DNA from: Mobula hypostoma
Taxonomy: Eukaryota
Direction of reading: 5' to 3'
DNA length: 64,000 nucleotides
NCBI RefSeq assembly: GCF_963921235.1
Contig: NC_086097.1
Span: 112,408,001 to 112,472,000 of the forward strand
Within the stretch, counting starts at the first letter, position 1. Each line of letters starts with the position of its first letter. Both the position numbers and the translations under genes were made by a program. A model generated the notes under the pieces. It was not told where the DNA came from and ran no database searches. It saw nothing but the letters and a program-made list of their open reading frames with translations. Below are positions 22,779 to 63,849 of this stretch, piece after piece.

Positions 22779-24886
22779 CTGAGGAATATAGCCAGGAGAG
22801 CAGATATCAGCACAAAGAGCAGGAAAAAGACAAGAAATCACAGCAACATGATGAATGACAATGTGGCCAGAATATTTACCTGATCCTACCATCCAAATGT
22901 TAACTACCACAGAAGTAAATCCCCCATCAAGAATACCATATGGGCTTCTTGTCTACCCTATCCTGATGTATGATTGTCCATGTAGCAAAAATTAGATGAG
23001 TAAGATATTTTCACCAATGATGAAGGAGCTGAGAGAGTACAGTTTTCCTGAAAGCCATAGGAATTTTGACTGCCCACCACTGACTGTCACCAGAATGTCA
23101 TTCAAATACCCAGCAACCTTTTGTCTACTGCTTATGAATTCTGTAAACAAAAACTACAGCCACCAAAATACAGGCATTGTACATGCCTTGGATGAGAGGG
23201 TCACATTACAAGATCAAATGAAGAACATACAAGCATTTACTTATTGAATTTATTAATCAAAGCAGGTATTACCTCACAAAGATAAAATGGTGCCTTCGGG
23301 TGTTCCTACATCCATCAACATACTATCTCAATCAGTTATGAATGAATTATTACAGAATACTGATAGCCTATTGTAAATTAGCAAAAAACACTGGATTCTC
23401 ATGGTAAGTGGAGCTCTGATTACCTTTTAATTTAACCTCCGTTCTCAACAGTGATTGTGAATTCCCCCCAATGATACCTTACAAAGTTACTGGGTGGAGT
23501 TGTTCATTGCGCTCCAAAACCAAACATACTGCCTGAAGCAGTGGTGGGATACAGAAATGCTAACCTCCAAAGTGGGGACACTGTCTCATGTTCCACAATC
23601 TAAGCCTCTTACGGGGCAAGGTGGGCTAAGATTTTCTCACCGGTAGAGACCCAGACCAATACTTCTATTGCTTCAACACATCCAGTAACCCATCTGTCTG
23701 CTCGAATCCTACTCCTGTTTTCAACCGAAAGTCAGCACTCTGCTCTATCTGAGCAATAGGTTCTCTTTGTGGAAAAGCATCTTGACCCAGAGGGCATCTC
23801 CTGTCCTTGTGTAACAAATGAGTTTATCTGTGACATATCACTGTTTCTGCAGAACAACATCTCACTGTTGGTGGTATCCCCTCTGCTCATGGCTCTTGGA
23901 AAACAGCAAGTATTCTCCGTTTCTTGGAGAACAGCTATGTATTTACAGTTGGCATTAATTTGTTCTTGGAGAATGGCAATCTGCTCATGGGCAATGAAAA
24001 GATTGCCAAGCAGACAACAATTTGTTTCACAGGTGATCTTCTTTGTGCTTAGAACAGCTCAAGGAAACAATCTTTCTTGGATGGTGACAAGCTAGTCACA
24101 GCAACTGGAGGGCAACAACCTGATCACAGCCAGTGAAAGGAAGGACTGCAATGCTCCTTAAACAGGCCAATCCCTAGCTAGCACAGGGGAGCAGCTTTCG
24201 ATGAACAGGCAAGATGGACACTGTGACAAATGAAACAGATGATCCTTGGTCATTTGAGTAATTGTGGTGTGGTGTACTTGGAGAAATCAGTTTACAGGTG
24301 ACATTTCTCTTCTGCTGAAAAGCAAACTCCTTACAGGTAACACAGCTGCGCTTGATGGCAGCAATTTTCTCACTGGTGGCAACCACAGTACTCAACACTT
24401 TAGGAACAAAGCTGATCCCTGGTGACAGACAGCAGTTCTAACTGGGTTGACCTGGGCCTGCCCAGAGGCAACAAAACTACATATGGCCCTTGCTGCTGCC
24501 AACCACAGTAGATACAAGAAAATAAAGTTGTTGCCAGGCCTTAGTGCTGAAGTGAGTAGGTTAGCTGGCATGTTTTTCTAGCTTAGTCTGTCTTCCTGAA
24601 AGAGCTGGCTTTTGACATCCACTATTCTACTCGCCATCTTATCTTCTTGGTCAGGAAGTACCAAACACCTTGGTGCATATTCCTATCAGTTTTCTTATCT
24701 GAGTTCTCTTGAGTACTGACGTTTGGAACCCCACCTCTGATAGTCTGTTACATCAGCTTTCCCACAGCATCCAGTTTTCTCTCCCAGGCTACATGCCTTT
24801 TAGACATGGCTCCTTCTTGCATCTGTAAAGCCATTATCTGATAGAGTGCTGAGAAAAATAACAGTGGTATACATCATCACCAACAT

Positions 24887-25145
24887 GGGGCAGCACAGTA
24901 GCGTAGTGATTACAGTACAGGTGACCTGGGTTCAATTCCTGCCACCTTCACCCCGTGACCACGAGGGTGTTCACCAGGTGCTTCAGTTTCCTCACACATT
25001 CTGAAGACCTGCCGGTTGGAAGATTAATTGGTCATTGTAAATCGTCCTCTGATTAGGTTAGGATTAAATTAGGGATTGCTGGGTGGCGTGGCTCAAAGGA
25101 TTGGAAGGGCCTATTCCACATTATGTCTCAATAAATAAATAAATA
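24887..25145 (+). mobile_element. V-SINE-like tRNA SINE
   Basis: 'ggggcagcacagtagcgtagtg...ctgggttcaattcc' A/B boxes; (taaa)n tail. Confidence 0.75.
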
Positions 25146-25170
25146 AAGTTATCATGTTCCTTTCCTTTCT

Positions 25171-28100
25171 GGGATCCGGGATATTTCTGATCGTGTCCAA
25201 GATATCCTGAAGTGGGAGGGTGAGGAGCCAGAGGTCGTGGTACATATAGGTACCAATGACATAGGTAGGAAAAGGGATGAGGTCCTGAAAGGAGAATATA
25301 GGTAGCTAGGAAGGGAGTTGAGAAAAAGGACCGCAAAGGTAGTAATCTCGGGATTACTGCCTGTGCCATGCGACAGTGAGAGTAGGAATGCGATGAGGTG
25401 GAGGATAAATGCGTGGCTGAGGGATTGGAGCAGGGGGCAGGGATTCAAGTTTTTGGATCATTGGGACCTCCTTTGGCGCAGGCGTGACCTGTACAAAACG
25501 GACGGGTTACACCTGAATCCTAGGGGGACCAATATCCTGGCAGGGAGATTAGCGGGGGCCAGTGAGGTGACTTTAAACTAGAATGGTTGGGGGGTGGGAA
25601 TCAAATTAAAGAGGCTAGGCGTGAGGAGGTTAATTCACAACAGGGGGATGGAAACCAGTGCAGAGAGACAGAGGGGTGTAAAGTGAGGGTAGAAGCAAGA
25701 AGTACTAAGGAGAAAAGTAAAAGTGGCAGGCCGACAAGTCCAGGGCAAGCATTAAAAAGGGCCACTTTTCAACATAATTGTATAAGGGCTAAGAGAGTTG
25801 TAAAAGAGCGCCTGAAGGCTTTATGTGTCAATGCAAGGAGCATTCGTAATAAGGTGGATGAATTGAAAGTGGAGATTGTTATTAATGATTATGATGTAGT
25901 TGGGATCACAGAGACATGGCTCCAGGGTGACCAGGGATGGGAGCTCAACGTTCAGGGATATTCAATATTCAGGAGGGACAGACATGAAGGAAGGGGAGGT
26001 GGGGTGGCGTTGCTGGTTAAAGAAGAGATTAACGCAATAGAAAGGAAGGACATAAGCCGGGAAGATGTGGAATCATTATGGGTAGAGCTGCGTAACACTA
26101 AGGGCCAGTAGACGCTGGTGGGAGTTGTGTACAGGCCACCTAACAGTAGTAGTGAGGTCGGAGATGGTATTAAACAGGAAATTAGAAATGTGTGCAATAA
26201 AGGAACAGCAGTTATAATGGGTGACTTCAATCTACATGTAGATTGGGTGAACCAAATTGGTAAAGGTGCTGAGGAAGAGGATTTCTTGGAATGTATGGGG
26301 GATGGTTTTTGAACCAACATATCGAGGAACCAACTAGAGAGCAGGCTATTCTGGACTGGGTTTTGAGCAATGAGGTTAATTGGAAGGGTTAATTAGCAAT
26401 CTTGTTGTGAGAGGCCCCTTGGGTAAGAGTGACCATAATATGGTGGAATTCTTCATTAAGATGGAGAGTGACATAGTTAATTCAGAAACAAAGGTTCTGA
26501 ACTTAAAGAGGGGTAACTTTGAAGGTATGAGACGTGAATTAGCCAAGATAGACTGGCAAATGACACTTAAAGGATTGACGGTGGATATGCAATGGCAAGC
26601 ATTTAAAGGTTGCATGGATGAATTACAACAATTGTTCATCCCAGTTTGGCAAAAGAATAAATCAAGGAAGGTAGTGCACCCATGGCTGACAAGAGAAATT
26701 AGGGATAGTATCAATTCCAAAGAAGAAGCATACAAATTAGCCAGAGAAAGTGGCTCACCTGAGGACTGGGAGAAATTCAGAGTTCAGCAGAGGAGGACAA
26801 AGGGCTTAATTAGGAAGGGGAAAAAAGATTATGAGAGAAAACTGGCAGGGAACATAAAAACGGACTGTAAAAGCTTTTATAGATATGTAAAAAGGAAAAG
26901 ACTGGTAAAGACAAATGTAGGTCCCCTGCAGACAGAAACAGGTGAATTGATTATGGGGAGCAAGGACATGGCAGACCAATTGAATAATTACTTTGGTTCT
27001 GTCTTCACTAAGGAGGACATAAATAATCTTCCAGTAATAGTAGGGGACAGAGGGTCCAGTGAGATGGAGGAACTGAGCGAAATACATGTTAGTAGGGAAG
27101 TGGTGTTAGGTAAATTGAAGGGATTGAAGGCAGATAAATCCCCAGGGCCAGATGGTCTGCATCCTAGAGTGCTTAAGGAAGTAGCCCAAGAAATAGTGGA
27201 TGCATTAGTGATAATTTTTCAAAACTCGTTAGATTCTGGACTAGTTCCTGAGGATTGGAGGGTGGCTAATGTAACCCCACTTTTTAAAAAAGGAGGGAGA
27301 GAGGAACCGGGGAATTATAGACCGATTACCCTAACGTTGGTGGTGGGGAAACTGCTGGAGTCAGTTATCAAGGATGTGATAACAGCACATTTGGAAAGCG
27401 GTGAAATGATCGGACAAAGTCAGCATGGATTTGTGAAAGGAAAATCATGTCTGACGAATCTCATAGAATTTTTTGAGGATGTAACTAGTAGAGTGGATAG
27501 GGGAGAACCAGTGGATGTGGTATATTTGGATTTTCAAAAGGCTTTTGACAAGGTCCCACACAGGAGATTAGTGTGCAAACTTAAAGCACACGGTATTGGG
27601 GGTAAGGTATTGGTGTGGGTGGAGAATTGGTCAGCAGACAGGAAGCAAAGAGTGGGAATAAACGGGACCTTTTCAGAATGGCAGGCGGTGACTAGTGGGG
27701 TACCGCAAGGCTCAGTGCTGGGACCCCAGTTGTTTACAATATATATTAATGACTTGGATGAGGGAATTAAATGCAGCATCTCCAAGTTTGCGGATGATGC
27801 GAAGCTGGGTGGCAGTGTTAGCAGTGAGGAGGATGCTAAGAGGATGCAGGGTGACTTGGATAGGTTGGGTGAGTGGGCAAATTCATGGCAGATGCAATTT
27901 AATGTGGATAAATGTGAAGTTATCCACTTTGGTGGCAAAAATAGGAAAACGGATTATTATCTGAATGGTGGCTGATTAGGAAAAGGGGAGGTGCAACGAG
28001 ACCTGGGTGTCATCATACACCAGTCATTGAAAGTGGGCATGCAGGTACAGCAGGCGGTGAAAAAGGCGAATGGTATGCTGGCATTTATAGCGAGAGGATC

Positions 28101-28729
28101 CGAGTACAGGAGCAGGGAGGTACTACTGCACTTGTACAAGGCCTTGGTGAGACCACACCTGGAGTATTGTGTGCAGTTTTGGTCCCCTAATCTGAGGAAA
28201 GACATCCTTGCCATAGAGGGAGTACAAAGAAGGTTCACCAGATTGATTCCTGGGATGGCAGGACTTTCATATGAAGAAAGACTGGATGAACTGGGCTTGT
28301 ACTCGTTGGAATTTAGAAGATTGAGGGGGGATCTGATTGAAACGTATAAAATCCTAAAGGGATTGGACAGGCTAGATGCAGGAAGATTGTTCCCGATGTT
28401 GGGGAAGTCCAGAACGAGGGGTCACAGTTTGAGGATAAAGGGGAAGCTTTTTAGGATCGAGATTAGGAGGAACTTCTTCACACAGAGAGTGGTGAATCTG
28501 TGGAATTCTCTGCCACAGGAAACAGTTGAGGCCAGTTCATTGGCTATATTTAAGAGGGAGTTAGATATGGCCCTTGTGGCTATGGGGGTCAGGGGGTATG
28601 GAGGGAAGGCTGGGGCGGGGTTCTGAGTTGGATGATCAGCCATGATCATAATAAATGGCGGTGCAGGCTCGAAGGGCCGAATGGCCTACTCCTGCACCTA
28701 TTTTCTATGTTTGTATGTTTCTATGTTTC
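25171..28729 (+). mobile_element. Young CR1 LINE: ORF1 3' half (SGNH esterase) plus full-length but disrupted ORF2 (APE-RT)
   Basis: ORF1 motifs HIGTND, SGLLP, DGLHLN; ORF2 motifs NARSIRNK, ITETWL, GDFN, SDH and RT. Lesions: TAG 26109-26111, frameshifts ~26310 and ~26378, TGA 27973-27975. Confidence 0.97.
26380..27975 (+). pseudogene. CR1 ORF2 reverse transcriptase fragment (531 aa open)
   Basis: Longest ORF in the track; carries the core non-LTR RT motifs. Confidence 0.95.
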
Positions 28730-29129
28730 TTCTGCTCCTTCTTATTAACAGTTGAGACAGCAGTTGAAACTGGTAGTTTAGTACTATAGTCTGTAATGAT
28801 AAATCACAAGAAAGATGAACAGTGTGCCTTGTGCCTTTTGGCAAATGGGTCATTGTGGACATGGATAAATGACCATAAGACCATTCAGCCCATCAAAGCA
28901 ATGAATGTTGATCAGAGCTGTCAAAATGGGATGGATGAATAAAGAGTGCGAGGTTTGTGTAACTATGGCAGAGACATTGTCATATGTCATATTATTGAGG
29001 AGCTGTGGCTCTTGCCTTGATATATCTCATAAGGCCATGGTATCCTTTCCTACTCTGATCTATGTTGCATAGTGTATAGCTCAAGGAAGTCAGAATCTTT
29101 ATAACTGCAAATGTCCTTTGCAAATAGTG

Positions 29130-29390
29130 AACCCACCTTATTGATACCATCAGGGAATAGGTACAGGTGCCTGAAGATGCACACTCAACATTTTAGGAAC
29201 AGCTTCTTATCCTCTACCATCAGATTTCTAAACAGTATATGAACATTATCCCACCATTTTGCTCTCTTTGTGCACTATTTATTTATTTTTTAAATATTTC
29301 TTGTTGTAACTATACTGCTGCTGCAAAACAACAAATTTCAAGACATAGTCTATGTCAGTCATATTGAAGCTGACTTGGATTCTGATATGC
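29130..29390 (+). mobile_element. Rex1/Babar-like 3' end
   Basis: 'taccatcagggaataggtacaggtgcctgaag...ttttaggaacagcttc'. Confidence 0.65.
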
Positions 29391-29822
29391 ACGACTTCAC
29401 ACCTGACATTGCACTATTCACAAGAATTTCTAAGTCTCAGTCAGTAAACTAAAGTATTTTCCTAACTTTTGCTGTTCTCTCTTCTTCGACATTCATCGTA
29501 TCTGTTGGTGCTGTTGGCTTGACCCCTAATCACTGAAGCCCTGTCACCTCACCTGCATGGCTCACTGCTGAACATTCAAACAGCAGCTATCGAGACCTAT
29601 CGAGAGCTATTCGCTTGAAATATATAAAACAGTACAGGCCCTTCGGCCCACAATGTTGTGCTGACTTTTTAACCTACTCCAAGATCAATCTACCACTTCC
29701 CTCCCACACACACTGTATATTGAAGGACTTGTTGAACTAAAATACTCCTGGAAATTTCCACTATGATAGTAATCCCAACTATTTGCAATGACTGGCACAA
29801 AGCACACACACAACAATTTTAT

Positions 29823-30145
29823 AAAGCAACACACGCAAATTCTGGAGGAACTCAGCAGGTCATGGAAATGAATAAATGGTCCATGTTTTGGGCCAAAGCC
29901 CTTCATCAGGATTGGAAAGGAAGGGGGATGATGCCGGGGGAGGAAGGGGGAGAGGGGAAGGAGGCTAGCTGGAAGGTGATAGGTGAACCCAGGTGGGTGA
30001 GAAAAGTCAACAGCTGGAGAAGAAGGAATCAGATGGGAGAGGAAAGTGGACCATAGGAGAAAGGGACCCAGGGCAAGTGATAGGCAGGTGAGGAGAAGTA
30101 GAAGGCCAGAGTGGGAAATAGAGGAAGAGGGGAGGGATTTTTAAA
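29823..30145 (-). mobile_element. Penelope-type non-autonomous terminus with a decayed hammerhead
   Basis: Homologous to 46723-46822; the minus strand has CTGATGA-stemII-AAAA (GAAA core mutated). Confidence 0.65.
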
Positions 30146-30638
30146 ATAATTTTATAAAGCTGCGAAAAGGAATTAATGAACCTCTGGGAAGGTTTGTATA
30201 GCTGGTAAACATCCATCTCTTAGAAATTTCACATTCATTTGATGTTAAACACCAGTATTGAGGAAGATAACAAAATGGGTGTACATTAACGATGTCAGAT
30301 GATACCAGAGGAAATAGAATTTACACTGCTACTTTATACAAGACTACATGATCACACTGGCAGAAAACAAGCAGGTGAGTTGTTAAAGGTCAGCCTATTA
30401 ACTCCAGGCTGTGATATTAACCTACACGACTGAGCCACATAAATGTAAATTGTGCTTCTATCACACCAGTGTTAAAACCAATGTAATTTTAACCCGGGCT
30501 TGAAACTGGATGAGACCATCCAGTTAATCTGAAACGTCTTCCACAGTGCCCTCTATATCCATCCACTGAACCCGAAATGAATACATGTGAGCTCCTCCCC
30601 ATCATTTTCTGACCACTAGTGAGTGGTTCTTTGTTATA

Positions 30639-31047
30639 CACTCAATGGTATTTTATTAGCTACGGACACACCACTGTTGTAATGCATGGTTATTTGAGTT
30701 ACTCTTGCCTTTCAGTCAGATGACAATTCTCCTCTGACCTTTCTCATTAACAAGGCATTATTGCACACAGAACTGCTACACACTGGATGTTCTGTATGAA
30801 AATCTCAGGAGATCAGCAGTTTCAGAGATACTCAAACCACCCTGTCAGGCACCAACAATCATTCCACGGTTAAAGTCACTTATATCACATTTCTTCCTCA
30901 TTCTGATGTTTGGTCTGAACAACAACTGAACCTCTTGGCCATGTTTGCATGCTTTTATGTATTGAGTTGTTGCCACATGATTGGCTCATTACACCCTCAT
31001 TAATAAGCAGGTGTACAGGTTGTACCTAACAAAGTGGCCACTGAGTG
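30639..31047. mobile_element. Tc1/mariner-like MITE
   Basis: TIRs 'cactcaatggtattttattagctac' / 'gtacctaacaaagtggccactgagtg', flanked by TA at 30637-38 and 31048-49. Confidence 0.8.
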
Positions 31048-31169
31048 TATTGTCTTCAATTGCTGATATCTTCTCAGTGCCTTTCACACTTTTGTTCTTT
31101 TGGATAAGCAATATTTGAAATCACTGTGGCTTTTTACTGCCCAAGTTTGGGCAGGAAATCAGTTTACTA

Positions 31170-31680
31170 GAGCAGTTAGGATGTTATGTTGAAGTTGTAT
31201 AACATGTTGGTGAGGCCTAATTTGGAGTATTGTGTGCAGTTCTGGTCACCTAACTACAAAAAAGTATCAATAAGCTAAAAAGAGTACAGATAAAATTTAT
31301 GTTGCCAGGACTTGAGGAAAGGTTGAATAGGTTAGTATTTTATTTCGCAGGGTGTAGGAGATAGAGGTATTATGAGGGATATAGATAGGGTAAATGCAAG
31401 CAGACGTTTCACATTGTGGTTGGGGTGAGACTAGAATTGGAGGTCATGGGTTAAGGGTGAAAAGTGAAATGCTACAAGGGAACATGAGGGCAGTGAGACT
31501 GTGGAATGAGCTGCTGATGTAGTGGTGGATGTGGGTTCAAGTTCAACATTTAAGAGAGGTTTGGATAAGTGCATGGATGGGAGGGGTTTGGCAGCTTTTG
31601 TTCACGTGCAGGTCGATAGAACTAGCCAGAATAATAATTTGGCACAGACCAGGTTGGCCTGAGGGTCTGTTTTTGCACTG
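31170..31680 (+). mobile_element. Degraded CR1 3' end
   Basis: [17 protein letters not shown] plus 3'UTR. Confidence 0.85.
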
Positions 31681-32559
31681 ACTCAGTTTCCAGTATGATC
31701 AGGATATAATTTTCTATCCTGATAACAAGTAGAAAGGAAAATTTGTGGCACTTATTTTGCTTCCTGTTTCTTGGTTTTCCTGTGGCTCCAGATGAATATA
31801 ATACCTATGAGATGTATTCAAACCTTCAGGAGAAGCGGAGACTGCTGCAGGAGTTTCCTTTCAAGAATGATTAATGAAACGAATGCCTTTGGTGTTTTTA
31901 ACTTCAAATTCACAGGGCATTTATTATTTTGTAAAAGTGATGCCTTATTGCAGAGCAGAGTGGAACTGCTCAGTTATTTTCTCAAAGCTTATTAATGGTT
32001 CCTTTGCTCCATATCTCCACCCTTCTGAAGAGGTTGGTGTCATCTGGTATATATTCCATCTCGCTGATTGTGTATGCTGCCATACTGTCCTGCTCATCTG
32101 TAAATTGAAAATCACCATCTGCTGGCTTATATATCTCTCCGGTAGTCAACAACAGGCAATGAAAAAGAGTGCCGATTGTAAGATTCTGTGCTTCTAATTT
32201 AGGTGGTGCCTTAACTGAAGCCTCAGCCAGTTTGAGAGCAAGAAAGGATGAAATGGTGCCTTGCAGGAATGGAGAAACTTCAGATAAGTAAACAAATACA
32301 GTCTAATCGTAATCCTTTCCACACTTTGCTCATCTGGGAATGAAAAACTGAAGCTGAAATTGTTTGTGATCTGTTTTTATGCTGAATTCTGGCTATATAC
32401 TTCAAACCTGCTTTCTTCAAATGGTAGACCAAGTGGCAAGGATGAACTAAAAATAGGTCAGCAATAATTAAGTCATCCACAAGATTCCTCACAGAGTACA
32501 GTTCGCAGAACATGAAATGAGTAGGTTGATTACATACCGAACATTTACACTAATCCTAT

Positions 32560-32790
32560 GTTTGTAATGCTCTGCACATTCTTATCAAAGCTCCTCAGAT
32601 TCTACCACTCACCTATTCACTACAGTGGCCGATTACAATACCAGCATGCACACCTTCAAGATGAGGGAAGAAACTACACAGGGAGAATAAGTAAACTCCA
32701 CATGGCCGGAAACCAAGGTCAGGATTGAACCAGAATGCTGACTGCTGTGAAGCAATGGTTTTACTAGTTACACCACTGGGTTGCCTACAG
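32560..32790 (-). mobile_element. V-SINE-like fragment
   Basis: Reverse complement has 'ctggttcaatcctgacc...tgtggagtttacttattc'. Confidence 0.55.
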
Positions 32791-32861
32791 TAGCAGTGTG
32801 CAATCCATTTCTTTGAAATATTTGCTGGATGTACTCTGTGAAACCTGTAGGAAATGTAACT

Positions 32862-33350
32862 AGACATAAGACCCCAAGCTATAGGAGCAGAATTAGGTCT
32901 TTAGGCCCATTGAGTCTGCTCCACCATTCCATCATGGCTGATTTATTATTCCTCTCAATACCATTCTCCTGCCATTTCCCCATAACCTTTGACACCATTA
33001 CTAATCAAGAACCTATCACCCTCGCTATAAATATACCAATAACTTGGCCTCTATAGCCATCTATGGCAATGAATTCCAGATTCACCACCCTCCAGCTAAA
33101 TAAATTCTTCCTCATCTTGTTCTGAATGGATGTCCCTCTATTCTGAGGCTGTGCCCGACGGTCCTAGACTCCCCCACTATAGGAAACATCTTCTCCACAT
33201 TTTCTCTGTCTAGGCCTTTCAATATTTGATAGGTTTCAATGAGATCCCCCCTCCCTCATTCTTCTAAACTCCAGTGGGTAGAGGCCCAGAGCATTCAAAC
33301 GCTCCTCGTAAATGGCCTTTCATTGCTTTTATATTCTAGTCCACTTGAAT
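32862..33350 (-). mobile_element. CR1 3' end
   Basis: Matches the CR1 C-terminus/3'UTR family of 12500-12929. Confidence 0.85.
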
Positions 33351-33479
33351 TTTAAAGCAGTATTTTGATAATGCCTAGATAAATCAGTTTTGTTAGAAAT
33401 ATTCATGGGGGGGTGGTTTATTCAATACAATGAGTAAGCTCCAACACTTCTCTTCAAAATAGTGCTGTAAGATACTTTA

Positions 33480-33760
33480 CTTTATACTTTATTGTTGCCA
33501 AACAATTGATACTAGAACATACAATCATCACAGTGATATTTGATTCTGCTCTTCCCACTCCCTGGATTACAAATATTAAATATTAAAAATATTAAAAGTA
33601 GTAAAAATTAGTAAATATTAAAAATTTAGATTATAAATCATAAATAGAAAATAGAAAAAGGGAAAGTAAGGTAGTGCAAAAAAAAACGAGAGGCAGGCCC
33701 GGATAGTTGGAGGGTACGGCCCAGATCCGGGTCAGGATCCGTTCAGCAGTCTTATCACAA
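33480..33760 (-). mobile_element. L2-group LINE 3' terminus with an AT-rich low-complexity tract
   Basis: Minus strand 'gtgataagactgctgaacggatcc' (VIRLLNG) followed by UTR ending 'aataaagtataaa'. Confidence 0.55.
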
Positions 33761-34279
33761 AATGCACAAGATGCACCAAACCAAGCAAACAGGCCATCAA
33801 TTTATATCTGGGATTTAATCATTGAAAATAATATGGGTTTAGTAAGTTAATTGGCCACACAGGTGTAATAGAGCTTTGGGCCAGAAGGGCCTGATACCAT
33901 GCTGTATCTCCAAATAAAAATTAATCATAACCTGATTTGCTACTGAAACCAATGTCGAGAACCTTGGTCTGGTCAGGAGAAAGCAACCACGTTCTGTGCT
34001 CCTGCTGGAAAACACATGCTCGTGGATATAGTGGTCTACCAAAGAGATGTGATAGATGAACATCTCATTTGTGAACAAACCTGTTTTGGTCAAGGTGAAT
34101 ATTTCTGCATTTGAAAGAACAAATGGAGAATCAGCAAGTGCAATTCAAAACAGGGCCTGTGTCCTAGGGATAAAGAAGGGGGATTTTCCTGACCTGCTTG
34201 GGACAGCTGCGAGGCAAGGGGTAGTTAGATTGGTGGCAGGATAGTACTAGAGCTATAAAATTTAAAACGGTGATGTTAC

Positions 34280-34530
34280 CATAAAGCATAGGAGCAGAAT
34301 TAGGCCTACTGAGTCTGCTTCACCATTCAGTCATGGCTGATTTTATTTTTCAACCCACTTCTCCCACCTTCTCCCATAACCCTTAACCTCTTACCAACAA
34401 AGAACCTATCAATCTCTGCCTTAAATATACTCAGTGGCCTCCACAGCCTTCTGCAGCAAAGAAATCCACAGATTCACCATGGTTCTTCTGAACTCCATTA
34501 AGTATAGTTTAGGGACATCAAACATTTCCT
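34280..34530 (-). mobile_element. CR1 3'UTR fragment
   Basis: 'cataggagcagaattaggcc...' same family as 32862-33350. Confidence 0.75.
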
Positions 34531-34796
34531 GGGGTTTTCCAAATTGTTTCTGTTATATTACTTGAAAGGTGTACAATTTCTGCAATTCAGGTCTTATGTA
34601 TATGAAGACAAGTTTAAACTGCAAGAAGAAATAAAACACTTATCGAGTGTAATATCCACATACTGTATTATCCAATGATGAAGTGGATAGCAAAGAATAA
34701 GATGAAGATTTGGTGGAGAGTGGTGTACAATCTTGCACGGTAATGGTAAAATATGATTGTGCAATTTATAAACACAAGAAATTCTACAGATCATAT

Positions 34797-35075
34797 ACAC
34801 AAGGAAGTCTGCAGATGCTGAAAATCCAAAGCAACACAAGCAAAACGCTGGTGGAACTCAGCAGGTCAGGCAGCATCTATGGAAATGAATAAAGAGTCGA
34901 TGTTTTGGGCTGAGGCCCTTCATCAGGACTCCTGATGCTGGAAGTTCTGCAAATGCTGGATGTCCTGAAGAATACACACAAAGTGCTGGAGGAACTCAGC
35001 AGGTTGGGCACCATTTATGCCTTTCCATAGATGCTGCCTAACTTGCTGAGTTCCTCCAGCACTTTGTGTGTGTTA
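34797..35075. mobile_element. Compound Penelope-type termini forming short palindromes
   Basis: 34797-34935 is a PLE tail with a decayed minus-strand hammerhead; 34974-35071 is a hairpin (acacacaaagtgctggaggaactcagc ... gctgagttcctccagcactttgtgtgt). Confidence 0.7.
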
Positions 35076-35079
35076 CTGT

Positions 35080-35755
35080 TTGTGAAATTAATTTTACTTT
35101 ATTTCGAAAGGTAGATGAACTGTAATACCAACCTATGATGACTACACCTAGACCATCTTTGTTTAATTTGCACCACATTTCTTCAAAGAATGGTTGTATG
35201 GGAAAATACATTATCATTTTTGCAATGGGAATGAAAATTCCATTGAGCGTTAGGTTGGCACATGCTGAAAGGATCCCTGGTTGAATTTTGGAGTGACATG
35301 AAATGAACCCCAAGTGGTTGTCAGGGCCATTTGCATTAGGAAAAAAATGATTTCTAACTGGATAATGCTGAAATAAACAGCATTATGCAAATGGGTTTTT
35401 GGAGCAGAGGGAACATGTTGCACAAGACACTGTGTAGAGTTTATGTGCATTTGGAATGAGTACATTAATCTTCAGTGCAGAAGGCAAACGGATTATTTGA
35501 ACACTGCCTGGCTATGCTCTCAGTGACGCACATGCACCAGTGAAAAAACAGAGCTGATTGCTAACCTATTTCAACCACTTAAAAACCTTTCCTGGTAGCG
35601 GTAGAAGAGAAAAACATGACATCCATAAATAAAGATAATAAAAAGTGTACACAGTCATCCATCATCATTCCAGGTACTCTGATAATTGAACATGCTATAT
35701 AAATTAGTATTACAGTTCATCTACCTCACAAACTATAGTAAAATAAATTGCACAA
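35080..35755 (-). other. Long-range inverted repeat (arms 35080-35136 and 35699-35755), putative intronic RNA duplex
   Basis: 20-bp perfect core (35109-35128 / 35707-35726); 52 of 57 ungapped positions pair in minus-strand RNA, 5 of them G-U. Confidence 0.7.
35566..35591 (-). CDS. Candidate 26-nt alternative exon encoding a short C-terminus (G/R)KVFKWLK*
   Basis: Minus strand acceptor 'tgtttttctcttctaccgctaccAG', donor 'tag|GTTAGC', downstream TGCATG at ~35531-35536; enclosed by a long RNA duplex. Confidence 0.45.
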
Positions 35756-36710
35756 TGCATCTTAAGCAAAGCATATGCAATCATCATCATCATGAGCCTG
35801 CATAAAAGGGATCATTTTTGCATATTCAGCTATTAAAAAGATTAAATTGCACAGCTGCACGGAACAAAAACACTTTAAAGATCTAATGTTTTTCTCCTCA
35901 CTTCGCTAGAGTGCTGACACCAATTGAATCACTCATTGCAGCAATCAATCACCATTAGGACTGAGGGTTCCACTCTGAAGCTGATCTTTTTTTCAACAAA
36001 AAGGGCATAAGCCTAAAACAGCATTTGGTATAAAATTTTACAAAACAAAGATTGCACAATAATACAAAACCATCATGTTAACGATTTACTTCACAGACAA
36101 TTTTAAAATGTTAAAATTCTATAAAAGTGCTCACATAGACTGACTCTAACTTGTTTTGTTTAAAGTTCCTTTATAGGTGATTATAGTCATTTACTTATCT
36201 ATTCATGATCATAAAAACCGTATTTTCTGGAAATATCAGCAAATTTAATATAATACTTTGCTAAATCTGAAAATACAATGTTCTTTGATTATGTAAACTG
36301 TAAAAATAGAAAATGAAACTGACTCTTTAAAATAAGTAGATTAGTTGTGCAAGGACTGCTGGGGAAAAGAGCTGATTTTATTCAAAGATATATTAATTAG
36401 TTCATTAACAATATCTTTGAATCAACACTGGATAAATGATAGTGATCATGAAAGTATCTGGTAAATGAAAAATGTTTGTATTTTTGTACTTTACAAGAAT
36501 CATACCAAAGTAAAAGCATGACAGTGAAATGCTGGAGGTGTACAATAGAGTGATCCAAACCTGATGGAAACAGAAAGCCAGGATTTTTTCATGTTTCTTT
36601 TCAATATTTGTTCAATGGTCAATGAATACTATTAAGGATAGATGTCCTTTCTTGATATTTTGTCTAGAAATAGAAGAAATACTAGCTTTTTCTTTTAAAT
36701 GCTGATATAT

Positions 36711-37204
36711 AGGTTCACCAGATTGATTCCTGGGATGGCAGGACTTTCATATGAAGAAGGACTGGATGAACTGGGCTTGTACTCGTTGGAATTTAGAAGA
36801 TTGAGGGGGGATCTGATTGAAACGTATAAAATCCTAAAGGGATTGGACAGGCTAGATGCAGGAAGATTGTTCCCGATGTTGGGGAAGTCCAGAATGAGGG
36901 GTCACAGTTTGAGGATAAAGGGGAAGCCTTTTAGGATCGAGATTAGGAGGAACTTCTTCACACAGAGAGTGGTGAATCTGTGGAATTCTCTGCCATAGGA
37001 AACAGTTGAGGCCAGTTCATTGGCTATATTTAAGAGGGAGTTAGATATGGCCCTTGTGGCTACGGGGACCAGGGGGTATGGAGGGAAGGCTGGTGCAGGG
37101 TTCTGAGTTGGATGATCAGCCATGATCATAATAGATGGCGGTGCAGGCTCGAAGGGCCGAATGGCCTACTCCTGCACCTATTTTCTATGTTTCTATGTTT
37201 CTAT
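36711..37204 (+). mobile_element. Young CR1 3' fragment
   Basis: Near-identical to 28231-28729; (TTTCTATG)n tail. Confidence 0.97.
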
Positions 37205-37869
37205 TTTAGTTTTTATATTTTCCGATAATTTTCCTTATTTTGACATTACGCTATGTAAATATAGGTCCTCTGTGCAATACATTAAATGTTGTTCATACAA
37301 AATCTTGTCAGTAATTCAGCTAGCAAGGGTATAGTTATTAGAACATCTTACATCAAAAATCTCACCTTAATGTTATATAGATTATGTACAGTACATAATC
37401 TACAGATTCAGAATAGAGTCAATGTAAATTCTGTCTTTATTATCAATTGCAGTGAGCCACACAATGACACTTGTGTGGAAATTTTGGAAGGAAAACTTAT
37501 TACAATAGAAATTTCCCTGTGCTCACAACAGACACATGGGATGGGACTTTAATTTTTGTTGATCTGGATTCTTCAACTCTTATTCCTAAGGCAACAACAT
37601 CCTCACTGACAGACCTGTACGGTGCCAAGGTCAAATGCTCATAATTACCCTCCTATGGGGAGAACAAGCCATACCTCTAAACAGGTGAATTAAACTTTGA
37701 CATCCAAATAATCACCTCTCTTCCTGTCACCTCTCCCACCTCTCTGGCTCAGCTCTTGCCAAGCCTACCAAAAACCATGAATCATTGGAAATGTTCAAAA
37801 TCAATTAAAAATCAAGTAATTCAAAAGATACAATCACTAAAAGTTGAAAAAAAAACAAACATCAACTAA

Positions 37870-38035
37870 ACGTGAGAAAGTTTGCAGATGCTATAAATGT
37901 AAAGCATGAGACAATGAAGAGCCTCAGCCCGAAACATTGACTGTTTACACTTTTCCATAGACGGTGCCTGACCTACTAAGTTCCTCCAGCATTTTGTATG
38001 TGTTCCTTTGGATTTCCAGCATCTGTCATGTCTAT
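37870..38035 (+). mobile_element. Penelope-type terminus, decayed
   Basis: 'atgaagagcctcagcccgaaacattgactg...gttcctccagcattttgtatgtg...ttccagcatctg'. Confidence 0.6.
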
Positions 38036-38687
38036 GATACTACTGTGATACTACTACTACTAAGGAAGTCTCCTCAAGGGATGCCCAGCCTGAAGAAGTT
38101 AAGTCACCCAAAAAGACATTAATGGACTTAGATAGGTACAAAAATACAAAACACTGTTTAATCTGCACAAGTATGAGGTGATTCATTTGGGGAAAGCAGA
38201 AAAGGTAAGTGGAAAACTATAAAGAGATCTTGGAGTACAAGTGAATTTCACTACACAGGAGCCAAGACAGAGAGAGTGGTAAAGTTTAAAAGGCAAGTCT
38301 TGGGGCTTGCTTGGGAGTTTCACTTTGTAGCACACTATAAAAGAGGTACCGTAAGTTTGCAAATTGATACTTAACAGTTGATTGACTAATTAGCCAATAA
38401 AAATAAGGTAGAGTCAAAAAGAGCAGCCATTTTTTGAGTGACCATTCTAGGAGTGGAGAGTTGAGGCTTTGGAGTGACTTAAAGGAGGCAAGATTGTAAA
38501 TTGCTACTTATTAGTTGATTGGCTCATTAGCTAATCAACAACAATCAATAAAAAAAAACAAACAAACACTACAACTATGAACTGTGAATTGCGTCTATAT
38601 GATTCTCCACCAGAAAGAGTCGAGGTATTCAAGTTTTTCAGGTGTCTGGTTTGATGAAAGACTTACTTGGAGGGTTCATATAGACAA

Positions 38688-40310
38688 AACATAGAAACAT
38701 AGAAACATAGAAAATAAGTGCAGGAGTAGGCCATTCGGCCCTTCGAGCCTGCACCGCCATTTATTATGATCATGGCTGATCATCCAACTCAGAACCCCGC
38801 CCCAGCCTTCCCTCCATACCCCCTGACCCCTGTAGCCACAAGGGCCATATCTAACTCCCTCTTAAACATAGCCAATGAACTGGCCTCAACAGTTTCCTGT
38901 GGCAGAGAATTCCACAGATTCACCACTCTCTGTGTGAAGAAGTTTTTCCTAATCTCGGTCCTAAAAGGCTTCCCCTCTATCCTCAAACTGTGACCCCTCG
39001 TTCTGGACTTCCCCAACATCGGGAACAATCTTCCTGCATCTAGCCTGTCCAAACCCTTTAGGATATTATATGTTTCAATCAGATCCCCCCTCTATCTTCT
39101 AAATTCCAACGAGTACAAGCCCAGTTCATCCAGTCTTTCTTCATATGAAAGTCCTGCCATCCCAGGAATCAATCTGGTGAACCTTCTTTGTACTCCCTCT
39201 AAGGCAAGAATGTCTTTCCTCAGATTAGGGGACCAAAACTGCACACAATACTCCAGGTGTGGTCTCACCAAGGCCTTGTACAACTGCAGTAGTACCTCCC
39301 TGCTCCTGTACTAGAATCCTCTTGCTATAAATGCCAGCATACCATTCGCCTTTTTCACCGCCTGCTGTACCTGCATGCCCACTTTCAATGACTGGTGTAT
39401 AATGACACCCAGGTCTCGTTGCACCTCCCCTTTTCCTAATCGGCCACCATTCAGATAATAATCTATTTTCCTATTTTTGCCACCAAAATGGATAACTTCA
39501 CATTTATCCACATTAAATTGCATCTGCCATGAATTTGCCCACTCACCCAACCTATCCAAGTCACCCTGCATCCTCTTAGCATCCTCCTCACTGCTAACAC
39601 TGCCACCCAGCTTCGTGTCATCCGCAAACTTGGAGATGCTGCATTTAATTCCCTCATCCAAGTCATTAATATATATTGTAAACAACTGGGGTCCCAGCAC
39701 TGAGCCTTGCGGTACCCCACTAGTCACTGCCTGCCATTCTGAAAAGGTCCCGTTTATTCCCATTCTTTGCTTCCTGTCTGCTAACCAATTCTCCACCCAC
39801 ACCAATACCTTACCCCCAATACCGTGTGCTTTAAGTTTGCACACTAATCTCCTGTGTGGGACCTTGTCAAAAGCCTTTTGAAAATCCAAATATACAACAT
39901 CCACTGGTTCTCCCCTATCCACTCTACTAGTTATATCCTCAAAAAATTCTATGAGATTCGTCAGACATGATTTTCCTTTCACAAATCCATGCTGACTTTG
40001 TCCGATCATTTCACCGCTTTCCAAATGTGCTGTTATCACATCCTTGATAACTGACTCCAGCAGTTTCTCCACCACCGACGTTAGGCTAACCGGTCTATAA
40101 TTCCCCGGTTTCTCTCTCCCTCCTTTTTTAAAAAGTGGGGTGACATTAGCCACCCTCCAATTCTCAGGAACTAGTCCAGAATCTAACGAGTTTTGAAAAA
40201 TTATCACTAATGCATCCACTATTTCTTGGGCTACTTCCTTAAGCACTCTGGGATGCAGACCATCTGGCCCTGGGGATTTATCTGCCTTCAATTCCTTCAA
40301 TTTACCTAAC
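38688..40310 (-). mobile_element. Young CR1, 5'-truncated, inserted in the Nimb element
   Basis: ORF 39311..40312(-) RT; tail (catagaaa)n at 38690-38713; same TAG as the 6.7-kb copy, here at 39092-39094. Confidence 0.97.
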
Positions 40311-40766
40311 AATTGGAAAGTGTGAGAAAATTTTAAATATTATGAGAAGTATTGCTGGATGCGACTGGGGAGCAAGGTGGGAAACTATGTACTTAATATA
40401 TCTAGCTATGATTAGATCAGTTATAGATTATGGTTGTATTGTTTATGGTTCCGCTGCTATGGCAGTGCTTGGAAAACTAGACACTGTGCAGTCCAAAGCA
40501 CTTAGACTCTGTTGTGGAGCTTTTAGAACAACATCAGTCCCAGCATTATGTGTGGAGATGGGAGTTAAGACGAATTTAAGACAAATTCAGTTGGACCTGC
40601 AGTATTGGGTAAAACTAAATGGATTCAGTCACAGCTGTCCATCAAAGTGTCTTTTGCAGGGGAAGTCGGAGCACCAAAGTAAAATTAAAAGATACCCATT
40701 TTTAGATTTGGTTAATAACTGGGCTGTGAAATTGAAACTGACTGAGGAAGACATAGTTGACCAAAT

Positions 40767-41387
40767 TTGCTTGCCACCCATCCCTTTTTGGCTCTTTCCA
40801 GAACCAGAAGCAGACCTATTCCTCCTTTTTCAGCTTCAGGGAAGCATGCAATTTCATCAGCGTTGATCACAAATGAATATTTAAATAATAAATGGGAATC
40901 TTATCTGAAGATTTTTACTGATGGCTCAGTGGACCCAGAGAGCAGTAGGGCAGGATTTGGGATGTATGTGCCTCAACTTGGAGTTAATATTGGTCACCGG
41001 GTTTCAGATGGTGTTTCTGTCTTTGCAACAGAATTATTAGCAATCCTCTGGGCCTTATGGTGGATAGAAGACTCTCGACCACGTAGGGTTATCATCTGTT
41101 CGGATTCTGCTGCTGCCTTCAAGTCTATAAAAGGGAGTAAATCAAAAGCTCGTCCTGACATAGTTATTGAGATTCTCTTAGTGTTGTTTAGAGTAGGGAA
41201 GATGGGTTGTGCAGTTAGACTTTCATGGATATCTGGGCATGCTGGGGTGGAGGGAAATGAAATTGTGGATGGCATTGCAAAGTCTTTCTTACCGAGCAGG
41301 CAAGTAGAAATTAGAGTTCCCCTAGGCAGAGCAGAATTGAGAAGTAGGATTAAAAAAGGTATAGAGAAGAAGTGGCAGGAGGATTGA
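40767..41387 (+). pseudogene. RNase H domain of the I/Nimb-clade ORF2
   Basis: Catalytic D-E-D-D residues in KIFTDGS, ATEL, CSDS and GNEIVD; frameshifted from ORF 40342..40866. Confidence 0.88.
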
Positions 41388-41609
41388 AAAAATGAATAAA
41401 GGGGCAAGCATTATTTTTCTAGTCACCCACTAGTTAAAAAGGTCGCAGACTGTTACCTTTTAAGTCGTAGAGATATGGTGAAATTAACAAGACTTAGGTT
41501 GGGGCATTGGGGGCTAAACTATTATTTAAAGATAATAGGAAAACATCCTACTGGATTATGTGACTGTGGTAGTCCAGAGACAGTGCAGCATGTTTTGCTG
41601 AGCTGTAAT

Positions 41610-42253
41610 CATAGAAACATAGAAACATAGAAAATAGGTGCAGGAGTAGGCCATTCGGCCCTTCGAGCCTGCACCGCCATTTATTATGATCATGGCTGAT
41701 CATCCAACTCAGAACCCAGCCTTCCCTCCATACCCCCTGACCCCTGTAGCCACAAGGGCCATATCTAACTCCCTCTTAAACATAGCCAATGAACTGGCCT
41801 CAACAGTTTGCTGTGGCAGAGAATTCCACAGATTCACCACCCTCTGTGTGAAGAAGTTTTTCCTAATCTCGGTCCTAAAAGGCTTCCCCTCTATCCTCAA
41901 ACTGTGACCCCTCGTTCTGGACCTCCCCAACATCGGGAACAATCTTCCCGCATCTAGCCTGTCCAATCCCTTTAGGATCTTATACGTTTCAATCAGTTCC
42001 CCCCTCAATCTTCTAAATTCCAACGAGTACAAGCCCAGTTCATCCAGTCTTTCTTCATATGAAAGACCTGCCATCCCAGGAATCAATCTGGTGAACCTTC
42101 TTTGTACTCCCTCTATGGCAAAGATGTCTTTCCTCAGATTAGGGGACCAAAACTGCACACAATACTCCAGGTGTGGTCTCACCAAGGCCTTGTACAACTG
42201 CAGTAGTACCTCCCTGCTCCTGTACTCGAATCCTCTCGCTATAAATGCCAGCA
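41610..42253 (-). mobile_element. Young CR1 3' fragment inserted in the Nimb element
   Basis: ORF 41709..42254(-) is open to the natural stop; tail (catagaaa)n. Confidence 0.97.
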
Positions 42254-43714
42254 TTGTTCAAGAGGCTATCTGGCTTAAATTTATTTTGGTTTTCTATTAA
42301 ATCTTTGTTTGGCCATCAAGAGAATCAACATCTAATTGAAGAGTCTATCATTCAGTTTATACGTGAGACTAGGTTGTATTCGAGAATTTGAGTTCCTTGA
42401 TGTTCTATAATTAATTATATATCCTGCGGAGGGCTGTAATACGCCTAGATGCGTCTAAACAGCCGGAAATAGAAGAAGAACACTACAACTATTTTTTTCT
42501 GACCAGTCATTGTAGGAGCAGAAAGTTGAGGCTTTGGTGTGAGGAGGCACAGGTAAACTTTTGTTTTGCTGTAATCCTTAGTATTTGATTCAGTGTAAAC
42601 TGGATAGTGTTTAGGACAGTGGATGCTTCTTCAAAATCTGAGAGTCAGATAACCTTATGGTCTCCCTGATTACTACATTTGTAGGAAGTTCACCCAGCTG
42701 CAGCTCCTGAGAAACTGCCCAGGGACTGGGAATGGAACTGGAAGTGGAATTTGAATATACTCTAGAATATCTGAGAACATAATGGGTGAGATTTTTACTG
42801 AGTTAGTCATATCCATGGCACAAGTTTCAGATAGATTGGTGACCACTTGAAAAATTAAGAGAAGTGGGCAATTAATGCAAAGTTCCACTGAGGACATTTC
42901 CTGTACTAATAGGTATATTTCTAAAGATACAAGCAAATATGATATGGGTAGAACAAGGGATGAGTTCCTGCAGATTCAGTATAGGGAGTTAAGTAAGAAG
43001 TTAAGAAGCAGGACTGAAAGGAGTAATCCACTGGTCACTACCCAGTTGCTATGTGTTAGTGAGGTCTGAAATAGAGGGATAAGCCAGTTGAGTTTGTGAT
43101 TGAGGAGCTGGTGCTGGGACACCAGACAGGACCAACATCCTTGCCGGGAAATTTGCTAATGCTGCATGGGAGAGCTTAAACTAGTACTGCAGGCTGGCGA
43201 GACTCTGAACAGGAGCAAGTCATGAGATAAAACGGTAGCCAATTGTAATTGGGTTAGACAGCTTTAGAGTACTAGCAGAGAAATGAATGCCCAGTTAAAC
43301 TGAATTTTGTTTCACCTGAAAAGGTTTAACATGCAAGGAAGCTGAGCTTGAAGTGTGGGCTGGCCCAGAGAACTGTTGTAGCCAGAAAAGAAGCATGGCT
43401 GAGAGAAGGACAGAATTAGCAATTCATTTTCCCAGGTGTAGACACTGCAGGTATGACAGTGATACAGGTAAACAGGAAGGACTGTTGCCTTTTTAATGAG
43501 GGAGAAGATAACAGCAGAGGTTAGAGACACATCCTTGTGAGATCATCCAATGTGCTTCCAAGAACTTGGAACTAGAACTTGGTAACAAGGGAGGATCGCT
43601 CTGGTAGACCCCACCACACCTGAATAGTCATGGAAACTTGAGCTAGTGTGAGGAGAAAATGGTCATAATTGTAAAAATAAGAGATGCATTAGTGGGAGAT
43701 TTTAATTTCCCCTA

Positions 43715-43995
43715 CTATTTAAAGATAGTGTGGAGAAGGCCCACCTGGTCCAACAAGCTGCAATGCCCAGCAACTCACCTATTTAACATTAGTCTAATCA
43801 CAGAACAAGCTACAATGATCAACTAACCTACTAACCAGTATATCTTTGGACTGTGGGAGGAAACCATAGCACCTGGAGGAATACCTCGAGTTCACAGAAG
43901 GAATGTACAAACTACTTACAGGCGGTGCCTGAATTGAATTCTAAACTCTGGAACACCCTGAGCTGTAAGTGTTGTGCTAACTGCTATGCTGTTGC
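43715..43995 (-). mobile_element. V-SINE-like element
   Basis: 'tctttggactgtgggaggaaaccatagcacc' is the reverse complement of the V-domain seen at 51720-51770. Confidence 0.7.
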
Positions 43996-44859
43996 CTAGA
44001 CTACACGGAGTGCTAAGAGCTTGGATGGGATGGAATTTATGAAGTGTGGCCATGAAGGTTTCCTGACTCTATATATAGAGGCCCTTAATTGAGAATTTTA
44101 GAATATTGGACCTTGAGGAACAAGATGGAACCTACAATGGAAGTGGCAGTCAGGGAGGGCTTTAGCTCTAATGACCACAATCTGATAGCTTTAAGAACAT
44201 GATGGAAAAGGGTTGGACAGATGCAGAAGTTAGGGTCCAAATCTAGAGTGGGTCTAATTTTGCAGGAATCAGGCAGAATTCAGCCGAGGTCAACTTGGAC
44301 TGAATGGCAAGTAGGAGGATTTTAGGAGTGTGGTATTAAAAGTCCAGTAGTAGCCATTTCTTTTTGAGGTGAAGGTCAAACCTGGTAAATTTAGGGAACC
44401 ATGGCTGACAAGGAATATTAAGGCTCCAGAGATTTATTTTCTGTCTTGCACTGCATTCAGATGCCTAAAACCCCGGGATTTCACCAAATGTGTTTTGGCT
44501 TTGTGGGAGGCCAGGGAAATTGCAGAGGCTCTTGTAGAGGTATTTGCTTCATTGTTGATCACTGGTCAAATTCCTAAGGATGGGAAAGTGGCTAATGTTC
44601 TTGTTTAAGAAGGGTAGCAAGCACATTTCAGGGAACTAGTAAGCCTGACATTAGTTGGGCAGGTATTGAAGGGAATTCTGAGGGACAGATCTACCAGCAT
44701 ATAGATACATTCTGATTAGAAGGGATCTGTATGACTTTGTGCAGAAGTTGTGTTTGATAAAGCTTTTTTAAGTAACTAGAATGTATGAGGGCAAGGCAGT
44801 GGATGTTGTCTATCTAGACTTTGCTAGGCTTTTAAGGTCTTATGGTTCCTTAAGCTTGT

Positions 44860-46345
44860 TATAGCTGGGGTGGTAATGGGATAAGCTACTGCTTCCTATC
44901 AAATGTTCCCAAATAGTACCTCAAATAGCCGCTGACAAGTCCAACTCCTGCCCTGCATGTGTGATTTAACTACTAAATGCAGCAAAATTTTCTACTGAAA
45001 GGAGGAGCAAAGTTGGGTTACTGACACCTTAACCAGTGATTTCAAGCAGATGGGGCAATCAGTCATGGTTAGTGGCTCATTGAGGAGAAAGAAAACTGAT
45101 CTCAAACTTCCATTGCCTTGCGGTTACATCCATTGATGGGGAAGTCTTTGAGATTAAACCCCATAGAAAAATCTGGACCTGGAGTCTCTAAGGGAGTTGT
45201 ACATTGAGTTCAACGCTGATTGGTAACTCCTGTGATTCAACCCGTGCCAAGCAGTATCAACCTCTGCCACTCCTTTGGATTCATCAGCTTTGTGGAGAGA
45301 AGGAGCCTGCAGCACTGGGTCTCCACAGGGGACTGTCTTGTCTCCCTTTCTCTTCACCATTTACACCTCGGACTTCAACTACTGCACAGAGTCTTGTCAT
45401 CTTCAGAAGTTTTCGGATGACTCTGCCATAGTTGGATGTATCAGCAAGGGAGATGAGGCTGAGCACAGGGCTACGGTAGGAAACTTTGTCACATGGTGTG
45501 AACAGAATTATCTGCAGCTTAATGTGAAAAAGACTAAGGAGCTGGTGGTAGACCTGAGGAGAGCTAAGGTACCGGTGACCCCTGTTTCCATCCAGGGTGG
45601 GCAGTGTGGAGGATTACAAATACCTGGGGATACGAATTGACAATAAACTGGACTGGTCAAAGGACACTGAGGCTGTCTACAAGAAGGGTCAGAGCCGTCT
45701 CTATTTCCTGAGGAGACTGAGGTCCTTTAACGTCTGCCGGACGATGCTGAGGATGTTCTACGAGTCTGTGGTGGCCAGTGCTATCATGTTTGCTGTTGTG
45801 TGCTGGGGCAGCAGGCTGAGAGTAGCAGACACCATCAGAATCAACAAACTCATTCATAAGGCCAGTGGTGTTGTGGGGATGGAACTGGACTCTCTCACGG
45901 TGGTGTCTGAAAAGAGGATGCTGTCTAAGTTGCATGCCATCTTGGTCAATGTCTCCCATCCACTACATAATGTACTGGGTGGGCACAGGAGTACATTCAG
46001 CCAGAGACTCATTCCACCCAGATGCAGCACAAAGCGACATAGGAAGTCATTCCTGCCTGTGGCCATCAAACTTTACAACTCCTCCCTTGAGGGGTCAGAC
46101 ACCCTGAGCCAATAGGCTGGTCCTGGACTTATTTCCTGGCATAATTTACATATTATTATTTAACTATTTATGGATCTATTACTATTTATTATTTATGGTG
46201 CAACTGTAATGAAAATGAATTTCCCCCAGGATCGATAAAGTATGACTATGACTATGCATACTCCATATCGTGTTATTCTGGCTTGCGTATCATGTAGACG
46301 GTTGGGACACAATAGCATGGTCAATCCTAACCAGTAGAGGGCCTC
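44860..46345 (+). mobile_element. RTE-like non-autonomous element, interrupted by Rex1
   Basis: Non-CR1 sequence splitting the CR1 RT between 'AFKVL' (~44840) and 'ggtctcatggtgggctggtctggaa' (~46348). Family assignment is inference. Confidence 0.5.
45308..46256 (+). mobile_element. Rex1/Babar LINE, 5'-truncated, young
   Basis: STGSPQGTVLSPFLFTIYTSDF, QKFSDDSA, YKYLG, RLYFLRRLRSF, SHPLH, SFLPVAIKLYN; (tatgac)n tail; one frameshift ~45600. Confidence 0.92.
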
Positions 46346-47755: not shown

Positions 47756-47759
47756 ACCT

Positions 47760-63785: not shown

Positions 63786-63849
63786 AATCAAAGAGCATCA
63801 CTGCTAACAATGGTGGTGGGGGGGGGGGGGTCAGCACACGACACAAGTT

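Follow-up and report, generated by a model that had tools for sequence, protein, structure and literature searches.

Within the 64,000 nucleotides of Mobula hypostoma DNA analysed here (the window), two complementary arms of 57 nt enclose what reads as a 26-nt exon ending in a stop codon. This arrangement raises the question of whether the arms form a pre-mRNA structure which controls the inclusion of that exon, as a preliminary description had proposed from the letters alone, and of what such inclusion would mean for the host gene.

Host gene and candidate exon

The host was identified as RIMS2, encoded on the minus strand, by scanning 264 kb in and beside the window for exons and by a protein search. 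Among the matches listed in the protein search (120 of 3028), all the named ones are RIMS2 or hypothetical protein, and the closest proteins are from rays (97-100% over the exon). The minus strand, on which the element had first been read, is thus the sense strand of a real gene. The PxxP exon (window-equivalent positions 77382-77273) ends in phase 1 and is followed by small phase-1 exons at 76374, 70568, 68467, 18438, 14834 and 14260, and then by the SMDMEER exon. The element sits in a 50-kb phase-1 intron, running from 68423 to 18438, among the small alternative exons found between PxxP and C2B (Table 1).

Table 1 Features of the RIMS2 element and its surroundings (window positions).
Feature	Position	Strand	Basis or remark
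Host RIMS2 intron, part in window	18439..64000	-	Upstream exon ends about 4.4 kb past the window (window-equivalent 68423)
5' arm of duplex (RIMS2 pre-mRNA sense)	35699..35755	-	Core 35726-35707; pairing, fold, cross-species comparison
ACUAAU in 5' arm	35703..35708	-	Predicted fully paired; six bases without listed change in compared organisms
Most conserved block, centred on candidate exon	35521..35654		0 events in 134 nt (D, F, G, H, I); 5 changes in K
3' splice site, pyrimidine tract, 83-nt AG-free zone	35592..35676	-	Crude acceptor score 5.5 bits
Candidate 26-nt exon, phase 1, (R/G)KVFKWLK-stop (TAG)	35566..35591	-	Read from the sequence; predicted poison exon, or else the beginning of a last exon
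Weak 5' splice site GTTAGC	35560..35565	-	1.4 bits; unchanged in all comparison tables
UGCAUG, 29 nt past donor	35531..35536	-	Unchanged in all comparison tables
Second conserved block with AUUAAA (35167-35162), just before 3' arm	35137..35190	-	1 event in 54 nt; possible intronic polyadenylation signal
3' arm of duplex	35080..35136	-	Core 35128-35109; carries GU-rich stretch and AAUAAA (35103-35098)
Nearest downstream RIMS2 alternative exon, 84 nt, VTWEDQQ...	18355..18438	-	86% identity to skate isoform P0168; 17 kb from the candidate exon
RIMS2 alternative exon, 33 nt, frame-preserving	14834-14802	-	Exon scoring
RIMS2 alternative exon, 36 nt, frame-preserving	14260-14225	-	Matches skate isoform

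The acceptor, the exon, the GTTAGC donor and the downstream UGCAUG, which we take to be an RBFOX-type motif, are all present as first described, and the phase-1 reading of (G/R)KVFKWLK-stop is in the right frame, since the host intron is itself in phase 1. The splice site scores were compared with those of the neighbouring exons, which range from -0.7 to 7.4 bits for the acceptor (eight exons) and from 0.1 to 1.7 bits for the donor (four alternative exons); the length of the AG-free zone is also within the range of the neighbours. Five AG...GT candidates in the 50-kb intron reach the scores of this exon and it alone has a UGCAUG within 100 nt, the thresholds having been taken from the candidate exon itself, which makes the comparison partly circular. 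Like the frame-preserving RIMS2 exons between PxxP and C2B, the candidate belongs to this cluster, is in phase 1 and has a weak donor, and some of those exons have long AG-free zones as well. Unlike these neighbours, which measure 33-84 nt, have lengths that are multiples of 3 (in all six of the small alternative exons scored) and appear in annotated isoforms, it is 26 nt long, carries a stop and is found in no retrieved isoform.

The premature in-frame stop is followed by at least 238 codons distributed over several exons. Inclusion is therefore predicted to remove at least 238 residues, C2B presumably among them (an assignment made from general knowledge and from the Pfam annotation of the protein matches), and, judging by the sequence, is predicted to trigger nonsense-mediated decay. 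The KVFKW tail was found in 0 of the 190 retrieved proteins (181 with the PxxP motif), the protein search having listed 120 of 3028 matches. Decay targets are seldom annotated as proteins.

In the paralogue RIMS1 of the ray, no counterpart of the element was seen, matches within 200 kb reaching E 0.12 at best; the RIMS1 region is much shorter, with about 13 kb from PxxP to the matched exon. A metagenome scan with the 20-mer core of the arms returned 0 loci, and a translated search for orthologous DNA with a spurious ORF (35041-35382) gave no candidate. The one match to a degenerate exon pattern, in metagenome locus L056, was without flanking similarity and was set aside as chance.

Some other features of the gene were recorded along the way. 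The RIMS2 exons at window-equivalent 68423 and -6680 end in GC donors (AAG/GCAAGT). Some annotated ray RIMS2 isoforms include a segment, DTQSCYAG, for which there are two matching places whose flanks are nearly the same (52783-52760 and window-equivalent -3496), so the annotated exon may derive from a repeat. At 1313-1282, on the minus strand, lies a 32-nt AG...GT stretch which has a consensus donor (8.9 bits) and matches no retrieved isoform.

The inverted pair and its predicted duplex

The two arms align without gaps over all 57 positions. A recount gave the same strand asymmetry as that first noted: in minus-strand RNA 52 of the 57 positions are paired (47 Watson-Crick and 5 G-U, with 0 A-C and 5 mismatches), while in plus-strand RNA the five G-U pairs become mismatches, leaving 47 Watson-Crick pairs and 10 mismatches. 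The perfect core of 20 bp (35109-35128 with 35707-35726) was also confirmed, and compares with a best perfect inverted match of 16 in 2000 dinucleotide shuffles. The minus strand has a predicted fold energy of -192.2 kcal/mol (z -6.44), which none of 20 shuffles equalled, and the plus strand folds more weakly (-184.1 kcal/mol, z -4.66); for the isolated arm duplex the values are -57.6 (minus) and -44.2 (plus). All five mismatches sit in the outer half, which leaves an uninterrupted inner helix of 29 bp whose mean pair probability in the predicted fold is 0.99. The excess of G-U pairs has to be read with the arm ends in mind. A strand-neutral BLAST alignment of the arms ends at 52 bp and contains 3 G-U and 0 A-C pairs, the two other G-U pairs falling in the last 5 bp, outside it; the 5:0 bias therefore depends in part on the chosen ends, and its within-genome p value is 0.03 to 0.12.

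The ACUAAU of the 5' arm is presumably a QKI- or branch-point-like motif. A role as concealed branch point of the candidate exon was considered and found unlikely, as two AGs (at about 35697 and 35680) precede the acceptor. No Rfam family matched 35080-35755 at the gathering score. A palindrome made of repeat fragments (34971-35074) abuts the 3' arm, and ten sub-threshold Rfam matches, of miRNA type, all lie on it (34966-35075).

Conservation of the exon and of the arms

Part of the stretch occurs in 11 listed organisms, with no RNA data set among the listed matches, which carries no information on expression; of these organisms, C, D, F, G, H, I, J and K were compared (one run each, 8 of 24 runs, all contigs). 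The pieces compared were short and included none of the adjacent RIMS2 exons, so that splice joints could not show, and no spliced read was seen. Events were tabulated by hand for D, F, G, H and I over 35102-35735; the count leaves out changes seen in C or J alone, those lying no more than about 30 nt from either end of the stretch, five low-depth changes in F (inferred at or below 35394) and nine changes in H (inferred above 35736). The exon with 50 nt on either side of it (126 nt) accounts for 2 of the 58 events, and the remaining 508 nt for 56 (binomial p 3e-4). On these alignments, the candidate exon and its splice signals are conserved in related fishes (eight organisms compared), as the proposal of a functional exon had implied. 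The exon itself has no listed change in D, F, G, H or I, and a single V-to-L change in K. The latter has the smallest word share (0.05), and its contig covers only 35280-35654, with 15 changes, all listed; the AG, GT, TAG and UGCAUG are all unchanged there, a change at -5 of the acceptor adds a pyrimidine, and the base beside UGCAUG (35537) is changed too. The most variable part of the stretch is 35191-35300, which also has indels, and 15 events fall in 35301-35420. The AUUAAA before the 3' arm is unchanged in the comparison tables, and the AAUAAA within that arm is altered in H.

The duplex could be followed over both arms in C, D, F, H and I (K ends short of the arms, and G and J are without the left one), with 35 reportable pairs per taxon and incomplete change lists for C and F. 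Out of these pairs, 34 form in C, D and I, 33 in F and in the M. hypostoma window, and 29 in H. Four G-U pairs are common to the compared taxa, which indicates that the inverted pair is older than these lineages.

The evidence on whether pairing has been selected is divided. It is possible, though we consider it improbable, that a real exon is regulated by its own conserved flanks, and that the inverted pair is an old local duplication with little or no effect on splicing. What the arms have kept argues against this: no A-C pair occurs in any of the six taxa, and all 8 transitions at paired sites are of the G-U type on the sense strand (p 0.003), against a background of 7119 G-U to 7463 A-C (G-U share 0.488) in 442 inverted repeat alignments of RIMS2. 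The figure becomes 5 of 5 (p 0.03) without the inner extension, and 3 of 3 (p 0.12) for the transitions new to this study, which had not been seen at first reading. Nine other local inverted pairs show no such bias (31 G-U, 42 A-C), and the confinement of the mismatches to the outer half, which leaves the 29-bp helix whole, also speaks against a mere duplication. In a post hoc comparison with H set aside, the inner helix is constrained: it carries a single event over 56 nt, and a nearby block of 110 nt has 15 (p 0.004).

The rates and the breaks point the other way. The arms have 11 events in 72 nt (0.15 per nt), against 47 in 562 nt of the loop (0.08 per nt), which places them near the fastest block (0.20). 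Compensatory changes on both sides of a pair were found in none of the five other taxa, and 4 of the 11 changes at paired sites keep the pairing, where 3.8 are expected under neutrality. All 7 transversions disrupt pairing, and H accounts for 5 of them. This organism loses four pairs and has two breaks inside the core, and for four of its breaks the change tallies rule out a hidden compensating change; it has 6 changes in 72 nt of the arms and no listed change in the 126 nt around the exon. In addition, four more locally unique inverted pairs exist in the 264 kb of RIMS2. One pair of this kind, of 62 bp (window-equivalent 123625-124145), lies just upstream of a RIMS2 exon (at about 123481) and has 3 A-C against 1 G-U on the sense strand.

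The earlier claim of a selected duplex is thus upheld in one part only: the duplex is found in five other taxa and is free of A-C pairs in six, but it has no compensatory changes, its arms are no better conserved than the loop, and H breaks four of its pairs. On the sequences compared, the evidence against selection on pairing is as strong as the evidence for it.

Proposed function and alternatives

The 26-nt stop exon contrasts with its multiple-of-3 neighbours while its splice signals are within their range, which leads us to propose, tentatively and at somewhat less than even confidence, that the element is a RIMS2 poison cassette exon kept skipped by the predicted loop-out duplex. The arms would pair once the 3' arm has been transcribed, about 430 nt past the donor, and skipping would be favoured. 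Slow or blocked pairing, for example by a protein bound to ACUAAU in the 5' arm, together with an RBFOX-type protein on UGCAUG, would lead to inclusion; UGCAUG would be the likely activator, and ACUAAU a possible handle for opening the helix. The included stop would send long RIM2 mRNAs to nonsense-mediated decay or, as an alternative outcome, yield a RIM2 with PDZ, C2A and PxxP but without C2B.

Arrangements of this class are already known. BRD3 cryptic poison exon 5b and BRD2 exon 3b are looped out by conserved complementary regions, and in that study (Petrova et al. 2024, PMC10789245) compensatory minigenes and antisense oligonucleotides showed inclusion, decay and the control by pairing. 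There as here, an intronic complementary pair flanks a conserved, unannotated stop exon, and there the pairing favours skipping. The RIMS2 element differs in being known from its sequence and predicted fold, in its host (a presynaptic scaffold), its exon length of 26 nt, its long helix (29 bp unbroken) and a conservation that was seen only in the compared relatives. Among the PCCRs of Kalmykova et al. (2021, PMC8052449), as far as the available text covers them, GPR126 exon 24 (RBFOX2) and a terminal exon of FGFR1OP2 (QKI) are looped out. The RIMS2 element shares with them a looped-out exon, motifs resembling RBFOX and QKI sites within the pair or close to it, and possible links to intronic polyadenylation and ADAR; unlike it, the PCCRs were defined on human conserved intronic regions. 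RIMS2 is absent from five supplementary files of that paper (245,821 characters), which are perhaps less than the full PCCR catalogue. A poison-exon study (PMC11632617) lists, in the part available, a cryptic exon of human RIMS1 (26b, 88 nt), which likewise is a conserved cryptic exon in a RIM gene, but in a different paralogue and of a different length, and the RIMS1 region of the ray has no match to the RIMS2 element. One supplementary file of that study has 0 rows for RIMS2, the supplement of PMC11162794 as accessed does not contain the gene, and PMC13646608, in its accessible part, concerns frame-preserving RIMS2 exons. No paper describing the candidate exon or the duplex was found in the literature searched, and supplementary catalogues beyond that search may contain either.

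Since the mechanism class is known, what a looped-out poison exon in RIMS2 would add is the gene itself and a clean test case whose helix is unusually long. If real, an exon placed between PxxP and C2B, whether poison or last, would act as a dosage or domain switch for the long RIM2 isoforms. RIM2 is an organiser of vesicle release in beta cells as well as at ribbon synapses, and a congenital cone-rod synaptic disorder results when RIMS2 is lost (PMC7273530). Should the element also exist in mammals, deep-intronic disease variants could fall in it and oligonucleotides for exon skipping could be aimed at it.

The main rival of the poison-exon reading takes 35591 as the opening of an alternative last exon of about 450 nt, ending after the AUUAAA. 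The product would be a stable RIM2 that lacks C2B and has KVFKWLK as its C-terminal end, and the duplex, by covering the downstream GU-rich element, would suppress intronic polyadenylation. The weak donor and the immediate stop would suit such an exon, as would the position of the AUUAAA in the second conserved block and the GU-rich stretch after it, which is predicted to be 99% paired. The available part of PMC8052449 reports an enrichment of 3' ends inside such pairs, besides the looped-out terminal exon in FGFR1OP2, and the visible text of 10.64898/2026.01.30.702498 names a cryptic last exon of Rims2, with weak peptide support and at a position which that text does not give. However, the sequence in between includes the most variable part of the stretch, with its indels, and a coding last exon would probably be annotated, whereas none of the 190 retrieved proteins has it; that preprint on last exons also reports that such exons are poorly conserved. 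We therefore regard a last exon as unlikely. A broader proposal, which we hold to be more doubtful still, combines the two outcomes in an ancient RIMS2 switch: the 29-bp helix would both loop out the stop micro-exon and hide the polyadenylation element, and pairing, QKI-type and RBFOX-type proteins would choose between full-length, decayed and C2B-less RIM2, setting the dose of the active-zone scaffold by cell type.

It is likewise unlikely that there is no used exon at all. In that case the interior would be a regulatory element, at the DNA level or of another kind, and the 29-bp helix would be a substrate for ADAR within the intron or would influence circular RNA formation. A 25-mer of the loop (35368-35392), found elsewhere in the genome once exactly and three times with 2 mismatches, would agree with such an element. 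The accessible parts of two papers report edited sites in RIMS2 in human neurons (PMC8594476) and abundant circular RNA from RIMS2 (PMC10078954). Conservation, however, peaks on the exon and its splice signals and not on the region of the 25-mer, the changes in K spare the AG, GT, TAG and UGCAUG, and a local pair within one intron does not bracket downstream exons. Elsewhere in the intron, an inverted pair of 181 bp (46723-47103, 96%, with a 19-nt spacer), made of repeat sequence, is a possible strong editing substrate.

The preliminary description had also argued against decayed ends of a DNA transposon, and the genome contains no multicopy MITE with these arms. The 20-bp core occurs exactly twice in 3.48 Gb, with up to one mismatch allowed, and the 5' arm used as a query finds its partner as the sole match at E up to 10 (two candidates scored). 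A 721-nt stretch finds itself, its own arms and two short interior matches of 80-81% (three candidates scored); these matches, on contigs C5 and C55, span only 35334-35402, include neither arm and are not located on the contig that carries RIMS1. A live or recent MITE is excluded. That the arms are decayed terminal inverted repeats of a non-autonomous DNA transposon, perhaps of an extinct ancient family, agrees with the size, the AT-rich arms and the resemblance of other local inverted pairs in RIMS2 introns to such repeats, but it is largely refuted already and very improbable given these copy numbers, flanks in which no target-site duplication is visible by eye, and an interior better conserved than the ends.

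The copies of the loop 25-mer lie on contigs C5 (223599700-223599724), C9 (two places) and C12. It overlaps a 9-bp hairpin (35362-35386) without listed change in any compared organism, bears what we take to be octamer- and forkhead-like words, and is possibly a low-copy ancient element.
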